A DNA stretch of 64,000 nucleotides, taken from IMG/VR virus record IMGVR_UViG_3300006045_000004, positions 26,180 through 90,179 of that record. The stretch is one strand, 5' to 3'. The stretch comes from a virus. Position numbers and translations under genes: made by a program. The notes under the pieces were generated by a model that saw nothing but the letters and a program-made list of their open reading frames with translations, made no database searches and had not been told where the DNA came from. Shown one piece after another: positions 19,881-41,816 of the stretch (positions are counted from its first letter, which is position 1; each line of letters begins with the position of its first letter).

Positions 19881-20239
19881 TTTTATATATTTTTTTTTGA
19901 TATAATATAAGAAAGGTTTCCATTTAGGAAATGTTTCCAAAATTTTAAAAAATCGAAAATTTATAAACACAACCATCTTTTTTTTAAGATGTATTATATA
20001 TCTTATCCTTATTTTAAAAATATCATTAAAAATTTATTATTATATTAATATATTAAAAATAAAATAATCTTTAAAATATCATTAAATTTTTATTAAATAA
20101 TCTATAAAAATATTTAAAATAATCTTAATATTTTATTAAAAATTATATGTAACATATTTATAACATATAGTACATTTATGTACTTTATAGTACATATTTT
20201 TATAGTAAACTTTATATAAACTTAAAATAAATTATAACT

Positions 20240-20827
20240 ATGAATAACTTTAAAAATTTAAATTTAATGAATAAATCAAGTATTACTAATCAAGTTTTAA
20301 GTAATACTAATATTAAGTATAATAATAAATCTTTGATTTATTTAAATAAACTTAATATATATGATAAATCATTAAATTTAAAAGCTTATAGCTTTTTAAA
20401 TGAATATAAAGCTTTAAATAAAGCTTATAGAATTAAAAAAGGATTATATGTATTCTTTGATACTAAAAGTAATTCTTTTTATTCTTTAAGTAATAAAAAG
20501 CTTGATTTATCAAGTAATAAGATTAAAAATTTAATTTATTCATTATTAAATAAATATACTAAAAGATTTAAAAGAATAGAATATAATAAATCTTTAAATA
20601 TTTATTCTAATAGTATTAGTATTAAAAATTCTAAAAGTAATAAAACTATTTATCAAAGAAAAGCTTTAAATCATAGCTTGTTTTATAGTTTTAAAACTTA
20701 TAAAGAGTGTATAAATACAAGCTTTGATAATATATCTTGTTTACAAGATACAAAGCTTGTTAATTTTTATAATATGATACACTCAAAGAATATTAATAAA
20801 CATATTAAAAAACAACAAAGTTTATAA
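20240..20827 (+). CDS. Highly basic Lys/Asn/Ser-rich protein, probably leaderless
   Basis: 195 stop-free codons in extremely AT-rich DNA; TTTATATA at 20211-20218; no RBS. Confidence 0.55.
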   Translation: MNNFKNLNLMNKSSITNQVLSNTNIKYNNKSLIYLNKLNIYDKSLNLKAYSFLNEYKALNKAYRIKKGLYVFFDTKSNSFYSLSNKKLDLSSNKIKNLIYSLLNKYTKRFKRIEYNKSLNIYSNSISIKNSKSNKTIYQRKALNHSLFYSFKTYKECINTSFDNISCLQDTKLVNFYNMIHSKNINKHIKKQQSL

Positions 20828-21425
20828 TAATTAATCATATTATTATATCTTTAAAGCTTTAAGCTTTTAAATTCATATTATTTATAACTAATAATTAATA
20901 CAAAGATTAATTATAAGCTATTTATTATTAAATACTTATTTTTATATAGTTTTAATTAATCTTGATAGATTTAATTTATTTTTATAGTTATTAAACTTTA
21001 AAATATACTCTAATAAACTTTTTATAACACTTTAATAACTTTTAAATTTAATTAATTAAGATTGTTTAATTATTTTAATCTTTTTAATTATAAGGATAAT
21101 CAATATACAAAGATTACAAGTTTAAATTTAATACTATGAATAAATTAAATACTTTAATAGCAATACATAACTAATAATAACAAAGATTACATTATTTTAT
21201 AGAATTTAAACTATTTTTAATACAATATAGATTATAGCGATAACAGTATCAAAGATTTAAAGAATATACATATATTTAAAGGTTTGAAAAGCTTTTAATA
21301 CTTCTTTAAATCTATTTTATTTATTTTTAAGATACTTAAAAAGTGAAATATCTTTTAATAGATTAGTAACTTTTTAAGCTTAAATATAAAAGTGAAATAT
21401 AGTAACTTTTATAAAAATTTAAAGA

Positions 21426-21451
21426 TTAAATAGCTTTTAAAAGCTATTTAA
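21426..21451. repeat. Perfect 26-bp palindrome TTAAATAGCTTTTAAAAGCTATTTAA
   Basis: Read directly; abuts the AAGGTG RBS of the 21464 gene. Confidence 0.95.
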
Positions 21452-21463
21452 AAAGGTGAAATA

Positions 21464-36900: not shown

Positions 36901-39601
36901 ATAAATTAGATTTGTATGAAGATAATATTAAAATGAAAAAAGAGATTAAAAACCTAACAGAAGCTATTAATGATTATGAAGATTTAATATCTGATATTTA
37001 TGGTGATAGATATAAAGTTAAAACAGAAGAAATATATGATAATATTATTCAATTTAGGATAATGCAAAATAGTCGTGATACTGTTTCAATAAGTAATTGG
37101 ATACAACATTTGTTATATTATACAGATGATTATAATATAATAAATAAAGAACATAATATTAGTTATGTAAGAGTTTATGATGAAGGAGAAAATAAATGGG
37201 AAGAATGGAATTTTAATGAAATAGAAAATATAAAAACAAAATATGATATTATTGATTATTTGAATGAAAAAACATTTGATGATTCACATAACTATTTTAT
37301 TAATCAATTTAATATAATTCTTCAAAAAGGTGATTAAATGAGTGAAAAACTTAATGTAAAAGAACTAATTGAAATACTACAAAACAATTATAAACCAGAA
37401 GAGGATATTGAAAGTGTTTATATAGATTTTAAAGATAAAAATATTAGTATTGATACAGAAGAAAAATTTGATTGTATAGTAAGTGATATGGTTGAGAATG
37501 TTTATCTTAAACATGATGATGAAAATCCTTTATATGCAGATATTTATCAAAAACTTCATAACCTTAGAAATATAATGAATGATAACTATGATGAATTTTT
37601 AAATGACTGGTATATAAATATACATGGTAGTTATAGATTTGAAGATGAAAAATATACAAGAACTGGTAAAGTTATGGAAATATTCATAGAAAATGGAACA
37701 GTTAATATAACAAAACCAATATACAAGAAAAAAACAAAAAATGAAATAATTAAAAAATTCAAAGTCCAATGGAGAAAAAAATTATGACAACACAAAAAGA
37801 AATAATACTAAGTATTTTAAACTTTGAACAAGGTCATGAAGAAAAAAACATTATAGTTGAATCTAATAATGGAAATATAAAAATATATAAAATGAAAATA
37901 ACAGAACAACAAAAAGAAGACATCATATCCATAAATGATATTAAGGTTGTAGATGATTTGTTTTTGTTAAAAGAAGAAGATTTTCTTAAAGTTAAAGGAA
38001 TTGGTAAGATTAAAGCAAGAAATATACATTTTTGGCTACAAGAAAATCAGAAAGAATATGAAAGATTTTTTATTCAAAATACTAATTTTAAAGAATATGA
38101 AATATGGAAATAAAAATATATAAAAATTAGCACCAAAATTAAATGTTTTTTCATACAGTAATATAAATAGATGTAAAAAAAATAAACTCCTAAATTTAGG
38201 CATATTTAATATATAAATTTTAGACAATTCATTATTTCAATATATGATATTTTTGAAAGGTGAAAAAATATGAAACAAATAACAAAAAAAGAAATGAGTG
38301 ATTTGATAGAGTGGGTTCAAAAAGACGACGGAGAAGTCATACAAATAAATAATAGAAATTTTATTAATACAGATTATTATGATATTATTCATCAAACAAA
38401 AAATACATTAAAATTAAAACATAAAAATTCAACTAAATGCACCATACTAAACATAATGGATATTAATATTCAGAAATGTGAAATCCAAACAATATCAAAA
38501 ACAGATTTATTTCTTTATTTTCCAGAAGTAAATGATATAAATGAAATATTATCAGACGAAACACATAGTATGTGTGGTGATGTTTATTATAGTAAACTTC
38601 CATTAAGAACTAAAAAAGATAGTGATGGAGATTATATGCAATATCAAGTAAAATATATTAAATATTATACTTCAAAAAATAACACTATTATTTATATATA
38701 TAATACTCAAAATGAATTAGAAGAAATATGTGAGATAAAATATGACAATTAAAAATATCACAAATCATGATGATAAAAGATATATTTATAAAAAATATGT
38801 AGAACCAATAATATGGATGATATTATTCTACAAAACAAAAAAATCAAATGCTCCAATTAATAACAAATATTCTGATAGATATGTAGAACTACCAGAATTT
38901 GAAAAGAAAAGAAAAAGTCCATTAAGTGCATATTATGGTCAAATATTGCATATTATGAATATTCAATATAAATTTACTAAAAAATGGATATTTATAACAG
39001 TTGTTCATCATAAACATAATGATAAAAATTATAAAACAGAATTTAGAATAGGTGATAATGGTAAATTTAAGGTGGTAACATGAACAAAGAAGAAAAAGAT
39101 AAAATAAAAAGTTTTACAGATTTTATGGGAATATTTGGAGATATGGAAATTAAAACAGATATTCAAACAACAGATGTAATGAAAGATATTATGGAAAAAA
39201 CAATTAAAAATTATTTAGATAATAATGTAGCTACTGAAAGCGAAGCTTTGTGGATGACAAGAGAAGCAATAGGCAAACAAGAGTTATACGAGTCATACAT
39301 ATATCCAGTATTGGAAATAATTCAAGAACATAGTAGTGAAGATTATTTTTGGAATCCTGAGAAACAACCAAGAGGTAGTAGAGAGCTTAAATTTAATACA
39401 GAAGAAAATATAACTATACCTTGTGAAAATGGAGAAATTTGTAGTATTGTTTATAGAATTAGGAAAGATTTTATTAAATTAGAGATTAAATTTTTCATTA
39501 ATGTAGCTCAAACTGAAGACCAGAGAAAAATAATTAAGATTGAGTTGGACAAACAAAATATCCATTTTGTTCACCCTAATAAAGTGATGTTGGAGCATTA
39601 A
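30940..39601 (+). CDS. Array of about 25 small hypothetical ORFs; the 33472-34081 protein has a possible C-terminal HTH; 35767-35997 is a multi-TM protein
   Basis: ORF track; coupled starts and stops; GGTGA RBSs. Confidence 0.6.
31172..31227 (+). promoter_or_regulatory. Repeated promoter cassette, copy 5 (diverged)
   Basis: GTAATAAATAGATTTATATAAAATAAAAACAAAC; ATG 56 nt after GTAATAA, as in the other copies. Confidence 0.65.
34101..34269 (+). repeat. 49-bp perfect direct repeat (34101-34149 and 34221-34269) inside a 68-aa ORF (34098-34304)
   Basis: AATTTAACAAAAAATATATGTAAAAATGTACCAACAAAAACAAGTATAA twice, 120 bp apart, with a degenerate middle copy. Confidence 0.95.
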
Positions 39602-39727
39602 TGGATATATTGTTGAGTGTGTGGATTTTTTATTTGTTTTTAATAAAATTATGTGGACCTAAAAATCAAAATAAACTATAAATATTAAGAATAAAGAGAA
39701 ATAGAGGAGAAATTTTTATTATGAAAA

Positions 39728-40046
39728 ACTTTTTTAACTCAATATAACTTTTTTAAAGTTATAATTTGGAGCATTTTCCGTGATTTGTTTTTTTATTTCT
39801 GGTACTTATACTTATTATTATTATTATAACTTTTATAACTATATAATATAACACATATTCCTCACGGGGCTTTTCTTCGTGATGAGGCGAATAGACATAA
39901 AATATAATTTACAGATGATGTGTTATGTTTAGTGGTTATAAAAGTTATAAATTTTTAAAGAAAGAAATGATACTCAAATTTATATATAAAGAACAGAGAA
40001 GTCTTTAATTTCTAACCTTAAAAAAGTTATATTGAGTTAAAAAAGT
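39728..40046. repeat. Three nested perfect inverted repeats centred on 39887; putative replication origin
   Basis: 29 bp at 39728-39756/40018-40046, 16 bp at 39824-39839/39935-39950, 9 bp at 39848-39856/39918-39926. Confidence 0.9.
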
Positions 40047-40226
40047 GTAAAAATAGTTAAAAAAACAAAAAAACATACAATACCTGCACACAAAATATCC
40101 ATTTTTCTTACTCATTAATAATAATAAGACTTTTTTTATTACTATAATAAACTATTTATATGATAAAAGATAATATAAAAATAACACTAAGTTAAGTTAG
40201 TTGTTAAATAAAAAGGAGTTGGTAGA

Positions 40227-41816
40227 ATATCAAATTTTAGACAAAATCTAAGTCCAAACCATAAAAAAAATGGTAATAGATACTATGATATAAGTATAGA
40301 TAATAATGGAATAAGTTTATATAAAAAAATAGAAAAAAAAAGTGAAGAAACCCCAGATGTATTAGAAATATTATTTGTAGAAGAAGAAAAAGTATTAACA
40401 ATAGTTCCAAAATCAATAAACCATTATAAAAACAATGAAACCAAACAACAATATATAAGATTCCACTACTACGACCCCAAATCAACAGAAGATTTAAAAA
40501 TAGATTTTGAAGACTTTTCTCAACTATCTGAGTATGTAAAAAGAATAGGAAGAAGAGTTGGAGGAAGAAGTAAGTGGTTAGAGTATTTAAGTCTTTTAGA
40601 AGTTGATGGTAGTTTAAAAACTTTTACACCAGTCGGAATAACATCAGAAAACCAAATATATAAATACATAGGTGAAGATGAAAACGAAATAATAGACCCT
40701 GAATTTGCAGAAGATAAAATAGAAAGAGGAAAAAAACAATTAAAACATCATGAACAAATATCAAACATTAAAAATAAAAAAAAATTTCGTACCATTATTA
40801 AATGGGGTATTGTTAGTCCTTTCTTTTTTAGTGTTAAAAACGATAATTTTCGTGCTGATGATGATATGATTCCTTATTTGTTTTTAACTGGTCGTCCAAA
40901 AGTTGGAAAAACTGCAATGTTAAAACTAATTGGTGATATTTATGATGTAGAACCTAAAAGCTCTCAGTCAGTAAAAACAGAGTTTTCATCATTAGTAGCT
41001 TTGTCAGAATCAAAAAAACCACTTTTAATTGAAGAAGGTCATAGTTTATTTGAAGGAAATAAAAATAAATATGTAGAATTACTTAAAGCAAATGCTTCTT
41101 CAACAAAAGAAGTAGGAGCAAGAGGTAGACCAACACTTGAAGTTAAATCTTATTATGGTCAAAGAACAGCTTCTTTTACTATGAATTTTAATCCTGATAT
41201 TAGTGATAGTGGTATGAGAAGAAGAATGGTTGGGATTGATTTTTTACAAGAAGATATAGCTTCTGAAGAAGATAAAGAAAAATTTAGAAGACTTAAAGTT
41301 GGTAATTATATTAATCACCTTGAAGAACTGTTTTTTTATTTACATATATGTATTATTAAAGAATTAAATAATTCAAAAGATAGTTTTTTAGATTGTGTTG
41401 ATAGGGTTCTTAAAGAAAATAATTTAGAAGAATATACATTATCAAATATATATTGGTCTGATGATACATTAGAGGCAAGTGAATATGAGGATGAAGATAT
41501 TGAAGAAGAAATGTACTCTATAATTAATTCTGAATTAGCAAGACATAATAAACCTAATGCTCTTCTCCTTGAAGAAGGTTTTATTCCAGGTCTTAGAGGG
41601 CATAATGGTAAGTTTTATATTACTTCTGCTTTTGTTAGTTGGTTTAATTCTAAAACTACTCGTCCGAGTACGAGTTTAACTAAATTAGGTGAAATTATTA
41701 ATAATGAAGCACCAAAAGTAGTTGCTTTTCGTGGTGATAAAAATAGAAAATCTGTTATGATAGACCAAACACAAATTCATTTTACTATAATACCAAATGA
41801 TGAAGATGAGGAATAA
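40227..41816 (+). CDS. Putative replication initiator/helicase (DUF927-like region plus P-loop NTPase), ATA start
   Basis: Frame is open from 40212 with no ATG, GTG or TTG before 40866; GGAG at 40215-40218; Walker A TGRPKVGKT, LLIEEG and RRRMVGIDF. Confidence 0.65.
   Translation: MSNFRQNLSPNHKKNGNRYYDISIDNNGISLYKKIEKKSEETPDVLEILFVEEEKVLTIVPKSINHYKNNETKQQYIRFHYYDPKSTEDLKIDFEDFSQLSEYVKRIGRRVGGRSKWLEYLSLLEVDGSLKTFTPVGITSENQIYKYIGEDENEIIDPEFAEDKIERGKKQLKHHEQISNIKNKKKFRTIIKWGIVSPFFFSVKNDNFRADDDMIPYLFLTGRPKVGKTAMLKLIGDIYDVEPKSSQSVKTEFSSLVALSESKKPLLIEEGHSLFEGNKNKYVELLKANASSTKEVGARGRPTLEVKSYYGQRTASFTMNFNPDISDSGMRRRMVGIDFLQEDIASEEDKEKFRRLKVGNYINHLEELFFYLHICIIKELNNSKDSFLDCVDRVLKENNLEEYTLSNIYWSDDTLEASEYEDEDIEEEMYSIINSELARHNKPNALLLEEGFIPGLRGHNGKFYITSAFVSWFNSKTTRPSTSLTKLGEIINNEAPKVVAFRGDKNRKSVMIDQTQIHFTIIPNDEDEE

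Follow-up and report, generated by a model that had tools for sequence, protein, structure and literature searches.

In polyomaviruses such as SV40 and in papillomaviruses the initiator (large T antigen or E1) is also the replicative helicase, and two hexamers assemble head to head on a palindromic initiator site; these origins have a core of ∼64 bp, pairs of pentanucleotides or of E1-binding sites and flanking AT tracts, and are served by an origin-binding domain of distinct fold. For the staphylococcal pathogenicity islands (SaPIs), the published account describes origins made up of 6–12 penta- or hexanucleotide iterons next to the rep gene, split evenly by a central AT-rich region, with two or more on either side facing in opposite directions; the iterons are bound by the C-terminal winged helix of Rep, two hexamers of which probably load themselves, one on each side (PMC9371898). 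Here we describe a mirror-symmetric element of 319 bp (39728–40046) in the DNA of a tailed virus represented by IMG/VR record IMGVR_UViG_3300006045_000004. Together with weaker flanking similarity (39600–40103), it has in our judgement an even chance of being an origin of replication, or at least a cis-acting helicase-loading site, recognised by the product of the helicase gene that lies downstream. Coordinates refer to the window, by which we mean the whole 64,000-nucleotide stretch that was analysed (26180–90179 of the 135,897-bp record), unless they are marked as genome positions.

The preliminary description of the window reported three perfect inverted repeats of 29, 16 and 9 nt whose coordinates each sum to 79774, and all three were confirmed at those positions (Table 1). 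It went on to argue from their common centre (39887) that distance from the centre, and not just sequence, is conserved. That argument stands only in part: the three repeats share a centre because they belong to a single long inverted repeat without indels (129-nt arms, 71% identical), in which a common centre is automatic, whereas the block-wise pattern of matches is not. When 39728–39856 was paired without gaps against the reverse complement of 39918–40046, 92 of the 129 positions matched, and BLAST recovered the pair of arms at 71% identity with an E value of 3e-13. When each position of the 135,897-bp genome was scored in turn as a centre, this one proved to be the strongest gapless symmetric centre, with 92/130 positions paired compared with a mean of 37.8 and a standard deviation of 5.9 (z ∼9); the runner-up centres score at most 70 and all lie inside a tract of 15% GC. 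The 319-base element is present as a single copy in the genome, and it recurs, identical and in the same orientation, in two further assemblies from other samples.

The statement that the spacers between the repeats are not complementary proved to be too strong, since the 67-nt spacer pairs at 35 of 67 positions, whereas shuffled sequences give 23.6 ± 3.4 (p = 5e-4); of 13 registers tried, register 0 pairs best. Judged from its sequence, the element is best described as one old inverted repeat whose length has been kept, with three blocks still perfect and the spacers drifted. The perfect runs of 29, 16 and 9 nt sit among spacers that match at 38–52%, and this clustering of matches exceeds what uniform decay would give (p = 5e-4 for a run of at least 29, and p = 1e-5 for a second run of at least 16 in addition), so that both the discrete blocks and the exact distances between them look maintained. 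Perfect blocks separated by drifted spacers that are free of indels would be expected if selection acted on binding sites and on the distances between them. The central 61 nt are asymmetric, with 10 of 30 positions paired, and a hairpin-telomere resolution (protelomerase) site was ruled out for that reason. The hairpin within this core (39860–39887) is insignificant when folded alone as RNA (z = −0.74), and an Rfam search of the region returned no family.

Inverted similarity continues in weaker form past the borders that were first assigned to the element, with ∼74 additional bases on the left (39600–39645, paired with 40057–40103). Part of it corresponds to a 14-mer, ACAAAATATCCATT, that is dispersed across the genome in 10 copies at no more than one mismatch, compared with 0.5 expected, and that does not correspond to a DnaA box. 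The copies in the window include those at 39553, 39600, 40090, 42390 and 48931, and three of the copies flank the symmetric element. Several are arranged as facing pairs (39553/39600, genome 15803/15855 and, at two mismatches, 48900/48931); the copies at 39553–39566 and 39600–39613 form a hairpin across the stop codon of the upstream ORF.

The arms are built around short repeated words, which the preliminary description had likened to iterons. This comparison was borne out: ATAAC occurs four times in each arm, compared with 0.47 expected (p = 4e-8), on the plus strand in the left arm and on the minus strand in the right, such that the two sets face one another; one extra reversed copy is found at 39758. 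ATAAC and TATAAC are the most enriched words of the arms, and the cluster is unique in the genome, with eight copies of TATAAC per 350 bp (0.45 expected) compared with four in the next best 350-bp stretch. The outer left block contains two AACTTTTTTAA words 19 nt apart, one TATAAC and one TTAACT. The longer form AACTTTT(T/A)TAA is present three times per arm, and the element holds four of the six genome copies of another, TATAACTTTT. The dispersed motif ATATCCATT was considered as a DnaA box and rejected, as it agrees with the consensus at only 6 of 9 positions.

A separate observation concerns the middle block. On an unrelated 45-kb metagenome contig of 24% GC, twelve tandem 9-bp units of TTTTATAA(C/T) occupy a divergent gap (L063:12739–12891) just upstream of a PIF1-like helicase gene. 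The unit of that array (TTTTATAAC/T, 12 copies) is the same as that of the middle block of the element, a likeness that is probably convergent. A search of metagenomes for the doubled-iteron pattern returned 44 loci, L063 among them, all of them unrelated AT-rich repeats.

Table 1. Coordinates of the symmetric element, its flanks and the downstream gene (window positions).
Feature	Position	Strand	Description or basis
Outer left flank module	39600–39645	.	Inverted similarity to 40057–40103; holds a ACAAAATATCCATT copy on the reverse strand, 39600–39613
Outer left block, 29 nt	39728–39756	+	Perfect versus 40018–40046
Left spacer, 67 nt	39757–39823	.	Gapless pairing with 39951–40017 at 52%
Middle left block, 16 nt, TTATAACTTTTATAAC	39824–39839	+	Perfect versus 39935–39950; two TATAAC 9 nt apart
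Inner left block, 9 nt, ATAACACAT	39848–39856	+	Perfect versus 39918–39926
Asymmetric core, 61 nt	39857–39917	.	G+C-rich imperfect hairpin 39860–39887 (8-bp stem), then DNA with an ordinary A+T content
Inner right block, 9 nt	39918–39926	-	Exact reverse complement of 39848–39856
Middle right block, 16 nt	39935–39950	-	Exact reverse complement of 39824–39839
Outer right block, 29 nt	40018–40046	-	Exact reverse complement of 39728–39756
Outer right flank module	40057–40103	.	Inverted counterpart of 39600–39645; exact ACAAAATATCCATT at 40090–40103
Probable helicase-gene promoter of archaeal type, ATAATAAAC + 2 nt + TTTATATG	40144–40162	+	Read from the sequence; outside the symmetric element
Rep/Cch-like self-loading helicase gene, 529–532 aa, putative initiator	40218–41816	+	Homologue alignment, fold

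The element had been placed directly upstream of a replication-type gene, and our analysis supports this: 172–181 nt separate its end from a downstream gene, the product of which resembles self-loading initiator-helicases in structure. The structure of that protein was modelled with AlphaFold2 (predicted local distance difference test score, pLDDT, 86; predicted template modelling score, pTM, 0.79). The best full-length match of the model is SaPIbov1 Rep (8tch_B, ‘initiation of replication protein with helicase activity’), with a Z score of 13.8 and a root-mean-square deviation (rmsd) of 8.3 over 402 aligned residues (model residues 12–527), and the second is Cch of the staphylococcal cassette chromosome mec (SCCmec; 5dgk_B; Z 13.7, rmsd 6.4, 419 residues aligned, model residues 9–521). 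Foldseek returned E values of 2e-10 for 5dgk_A and 4e-9 for 8tch_B. Further matches, confined to the ATPase core, are to MCM, poxvirus D5/E5, NrS-1 and SaPI5 PriRep. Structurally, the model points to a self-loading initiator-helicase with three domains, like SaPI Rep and SCCmec Cch; its C-terminal domain, when folded alone, reached a pLDDT of 76. Searches of the helicase and eight neighbouring ORFs against Pfam and PHROGs gave no significant match (two marginal PHROG matches had E ∼0.01), a PDB profile search with the helicase gave P-loop matches only, all insignificant (E of at least 0.027), and the Pfam MCM and Cdc6 (Cdc6_C) families had no match in the genome. Among the genes examined, the helicase is the only candidate for an initiator or replicative helicase.

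The start of this gene is unusual. Its reading frame is open from 40212 to 41816, and the first ATG, GTG or TTG is at 40866, after 213 in-frame codons without any of the three. The first codons of a homologue (P0003), ATG-GGT-AGA, correspond to GTT-GGT-AGA (40218) in the alignment; an ATA lies at 40227, 8 nt past a GGAG. Homologues at 34–48% identity span all 529 residues, and the N-terminal 150 residues of the protein fold confidently, the stretch encoded before 40866 having a pLDDT of 82–93 and being conserved in the homologues. We therefore conclude that the long form is real and that its start codon is either non-canonical or altered by a sequence error. The next gene begins 3 nt past the helicase stop codon.

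Five distant lineages of the helicase were found in protein databases; scans of IMG/VR and of JGI metagenomes with the protein and its alignment gave no relatives, and more distant sequence relatives are PrimPol-helicase fusions. One homologue, 48% identical (P0002, on contigs L008 and L009), carries a LAGLIDADG / Hom_end intein at residues ∼233–620, inserted between the GK and the T of the Walker A loop. Six of the ten contigs with helicase homologues (L007, L008, L009, L014, L016 and L017) stop 251–555 bp short of the gene on its upstream side; such ends may reflect repeats or palindromes at which de Bruijn assemblies break. Short facing words are present at some of these loci. Upstream of the homologue on L015, TCTTTC and GAAAGA face one another (0/200 shuffles), and the same facing words upstream on L009 are not significant; the truncated upstream end of L009 is enriched in GTAAC / GTTAC. 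On L012 a 2-kb stretch free of ORFs, downstream of a 46%-identical homologue (L012:6549–8540), holds five of the seven GTCTTTC words of the locus, in both orientations, and includes ATGGTCTTTC / GAAAGACCAT pairs. By analogy with SaPIs, in which the origin is also downstream, this stretch may be the origin of the L012 element.

The two largest non-coding gaps of this tightly packed genome are at 39602–40217 (616 bp) and 20828–21463 (636 bp, 13.8% GC). The element is within the former, exactly between a region of early small-ORF cassettes and the replication module. The sequence at 40144–40162 matches the GTAATAAAT-N4-TTTATATA boxes of the upstream cassette genes, which are of the archaeal type of B-recognition element (BRE) and TATA box, and is probably the promoter of the helicase gene. 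A scan of the region found no terminators, and promoter-like sites were fewer than in shuffles. At 39705–39747, a good ribosome-binding site (RBS; GGAG) and an ATG at 39721 introduce an ORF of only 8 codons (MKNFFNSI), which extends into the left outer block and is either the remnant of a gene start or fortuitous.

The ends of the record (1–158 and 135740–135897) are identical at 156 of 158 positions, and the map therefore closes on itself at ∼135.74 kb; the genome is thus probably complete, despite being flagged ‘linear, 85%’. Public sequencing runs that hold the sequence are termite-gut metagenomes. The minus strand carries the terminase, portal and prohead protease genes. Among 50,697 phage records, the best match of the terminase is Methanobacterium virus PhiF1 (36% identity, E = 2e-81), as is that of a split DnaE-type polymerase (32%, E = 3e-98), and the order of the structural and replication modules is common to the two genomes (tblastx). 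The replication module beyond the window (genome 105896–117855, L023–L027) encodes that polymerase, a split PHP + DnaE-type enzyme (bacterial Pol III alpha), together with a PD-(D/E)XK nuclease, a primase-large-subunit-like protein and NrdD. This segment is syntenic with PhiF1, a case of an archaeal virus with a replicative polymerase of bacterial type. The homology and synteny with PhiF1 and the archaeal-type cassette promoters agree with the methanogen host that had been suggested for the virus; from the termite-gut habitat and a GC content of 27% we infer that this host is Methanobrevibacter.

Comparison with the systems introduced above reveals a mixture of shared and divergent features. 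As in SaPIs, words of 5–6 nt are repeated on both sides of a centre and face one another, in a site of a few hundred basepairs beside a helicase gene. As in Rep and Cch, the adjacent protein appears, from its fold match only, to combine an N-terminal domain, an ATPase of the pre-sensor-II-insert type and a C-terminal domain. It has no detectable sequence similarity to either protein, however, and the site itself is organised differently: where SaPI origins are simple iteron arrays, the arms of the element mirror one another over 129 nt without a gap and include three perfect blocks, its words are irregularly spaced (9, 13 and 82 nt), its centre is G+C-rich and asymmetric rather than AT-rich, and it belongs to a 136-kb archaeal (methanogen) virus with its own DnaE polymerase. 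A link to the SV40 and papillomavirus initiators is provided by the ATPase core, which matches D5/E5 helicases of the superfamily 3 (SF3) type, but the span of the site is 319 bp. The inverted sites beside a candidate initiator gene, in an archaeal setting, recall archaeal chromosomal origins, whose inverted origin recognition boxes (ORB or mini-ORB) lie on both sides of an unwinding element, next to orc1/cdc6; unlike those, the virus has no Pfam match to Orc1/Cdc6 or MCM, and the element has no ORB-like sequence and no AT-rich centre. The ori and crr sites of satellite phage P4 likewise place short repeated words, recognised by its alpha primase-helicase, at two separate loci, and the window contains a second cluster of words (TAACTTTT, 21036–21410) 18.5 kb away; the P4 repeats, however, are direct octamers, while the second cluster consists of three words in one orientation within a tract of 14% GC.

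If the element is an origin, the helicase would bind the (T)ATAAC / AACTTTT(T/A)TAA words, four per arm and in opposite directions. Since the words of the two arms are oppositely directed, we propose that two oligomers would assemble as mirror images, one to each side of the asymmetric 61-nt core. The DNA between or beside them would then open and two forks would depart in opposite directions, after which the viral DnaE-type polymerase and the primase-like protein would take over. A more elaborate version of this scheme, which we consider improbable, is that the exact distances between blocks set the register of two head-to-head oligomers around the G+C-rich core, that the TAACTTTT-containing gap of 14% GC 18.5 kb upstream is a second cis-acting site (the partner in an ori/crr-like pair, or a fork barrier), and that the 19-kb early module is copied in the direction opposite to the rest of the genome, a scheme that could be read from the skew change points at 20.7 and 41.1 kb.

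Those change points were obtained from plus-strand genes, at whose four-fold degenerate sites the A/T skew is ∼+0.18 from 27 to 41 kb and −0.19 beyond (range 27000–56000). In three nested ranges the best change point is at 41138, ∼1.2 kb from the centre of the element (t = 8.0, a value that 0/200 site permutations reach); over the whole plus-strand block it is at 20719, in the other large gap. The genes of the early module (21–40 kb) are compositionally distinct from other plus-strand genes. A change of replication direction at both sites fits the skew, but we regard this evidence as only suggestive, because a replication switch and a distinct early module explain it equally. GC skew over the whole genome tracks gene strand and reaches its minimum at the divergent point (window ∼9.4 kb), with no switch at the symmetric element.

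The proposal of a bidirectional origin made in the preliminary description is supported by the uniqueness of the element, its position in a large gap, its facing words and its adjacency to the helicase gene, and finds no support in an AT-rich centre or a GC-skew switch; origin function is one we infer. Several observations weigh against an origin at this position. The core had been described as containing an AT-rich tract, but it offers no AT-rich site for melting: 40-nt windows at 39840–39880 are 50–65% AT, the lowest values of the 616-bp gap and below the genome average of 73%, and the highest AT content (85–90%) is found in the tracts between the outer and middle blocks. The SaPI origin lies immediately downstream of rep, and the element lies upstream of its helicase gene. 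The structural matches of the C-terminal domain, which binds the iterons in SaPI Rep, are weak (Z of at most 5.7) and mostly to winged-helix proteins, with the C-terminal domain of SaPIbov1 Rep itself at Z 3.8. Complete flanks are available for just two relatives, L015 and L012, and the gaps upstream of the gene in these (720 and 425 bp) contain no comparable palindrome. The synonymous-skew change point coincides with the boundary between gene modules, so that transcription or gene class could account for it, and an early module bounded by the two large gaps fits it equally well. Finally, the second gap (20828–21463, 13.8% GC) is itself a candidate site, with the skew change point at 20719 and three TAACTTTT words (3 of 22 genome copies, at 21036, 21367 and 21403) that resemble the repeat of the element; together with a stretch at 19881–20239, its GC content is 11–14%. 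Because an AT-rich centre and a downstream position were both looked for and neither was found, we do not file the element as a member of the SaPI type. We put at about even odds that it works like a SaPI-type origin, as a variant of the design that combines a self-loading helicase with facing iterons, in a virus of methanogens.

Some of the same observations would be expected of a transcriptional control region at the boundary of the early and replication modules. The mirrored blocks would then act as operators, or as boxes resembling promoters, for a regulator of viral or host origin, bound as a symmetric oligomer or bringing them together by DNA looping; they would shut off early transcription and time expression of the helicase operon. 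The element falls exactly on the boundary of two gene modules, two copies of the dispersed 14-mer form a hairpin at the end of the upstream ORF, and a change of transcription unit explains the synonymous-skew change point equally well. Within it, the repeat on the gene-proximal arm is AAAAGTTATAAAT, which differs by one base from AAAGTAATAAAT, a box found ahead of the TATA box in five cassette promoters, and a TTTATATA box occurs in the right spacer (39979–39986). Several sites would be expected, however, for the regulator of a class of promoters, and the TATAAC cluster is unique; moreover, the helicase gene has a cassette-like promoter of its own outside the element, promoters in the left arm would point leftwards, where that strand carries no gene, and the scan of the region turned up no terminator-like site. 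Operators are in addition usually short local palindromes rather than sequences mirrored across 300 bp. We therefore consider a control region unlikely, if by no means negligible. We likewise assign a small probability to a functionless inverted duplication produced by template switching, or to an insertion of the foldback or miniature inverted-repeat transposable element (MITE) kind, whose blocks would be kept by gene conversion or reflect a recent origin. The spacers are still detectably complementary and lack indels, as for a moderately old duplication; the longest perfect block is at the outer ends, in the manner of terminal inverted repeats, which with an AT-rich interior and a length of ∼300 bp resembles a MITE; distant relatives lack a comparable palindrome; and the RBS and ATG at 39705–39723, with their 8-codon ORF, could be the stump of an interrupted gene. 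Yet runs of 29, 16 and 9 nt amid spacers matched at 52% are not what uniform decay produces (p ∼1e-5), the inverted similarity continues past the supposed termini, precise removal of the element, worked through by hand, brings back no extended ORF from the ATG at 39721, and the element is identical in two further assemblies. It is also a single genome copy, and it is absent from the collections of host genomes searched: a 21-mer of the terminal block and a degenerate 30-mer were not found in the 185,579 species-representative prokaryote genomes of GTDB, nor was the 30-mer found in IMG/VR. The target-site duplication that a mobile element, named as an alternative in the preliminary description, might have left was looked for and no clean one is present, the flanks TTATGAAAA (...ATGAAAA) and GTAAAAATAG (GTAAAAA...) having only an A-run in common.

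Two further explanations turn on the inverted repeats themselves. Directly before the helicase gene, a 261-bp segment is bounded by perfect 29-bp inverted repeats, which is the geometry of invertons of the fimS and Bacteroides types; a segment of this kind, or a resolution site, could switch the helicase operon. We believe this to be extremely unlikely: neither a tyrosine (PF00589) nor a serine (PF00239) recombinase domain was found in the genome, the segment has one orientation in all three independent assemblies, and its interior is largely symmetric, so that inversion would change little. These findings also count against the recombination or resolution site that had been listed as an alternative. 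The repeats might instead act on a single strand, as a fold-back hairpin that signals priming or primosome assembly in place of a duplex loading site. Folded as single-stranded DNA, the element does reach −49.1 kcal/mol, compared with −21.3 ± 3.7 for shuffles (z = −7.6), and the virus encodes a primase-large-subunit-like protein; this fold, however, is the inverted repeat in another guise, an unpaired centre of 61 nt and spacers paired at 52% make a poor hairpin, and conservation, as far as one sequence can tell, lies in discrete blocks and not in pairing. A single-strand signal of this type is in our view very unlikely.

Should the element not be an origin, it would be a mere curiosity, the largest palindrome of one viral genome. 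In either case its exact mirror spacing and drifted spacers offer a ready test of geometry versus sequence. We know of no mapped replication origin for any tailed virus of methanogens, and genetic tools are scarce for Methanobrevibacter and its relatives. If the element does function as an origin, then its ∼0.3–0.5 kb together with a one-gene helicase would be a candidate minimal replicon or shuttle vector, and would provide a clean in vitro system for the loader-free loading of a Rep/Cch/MCM-like helicase in archaea.

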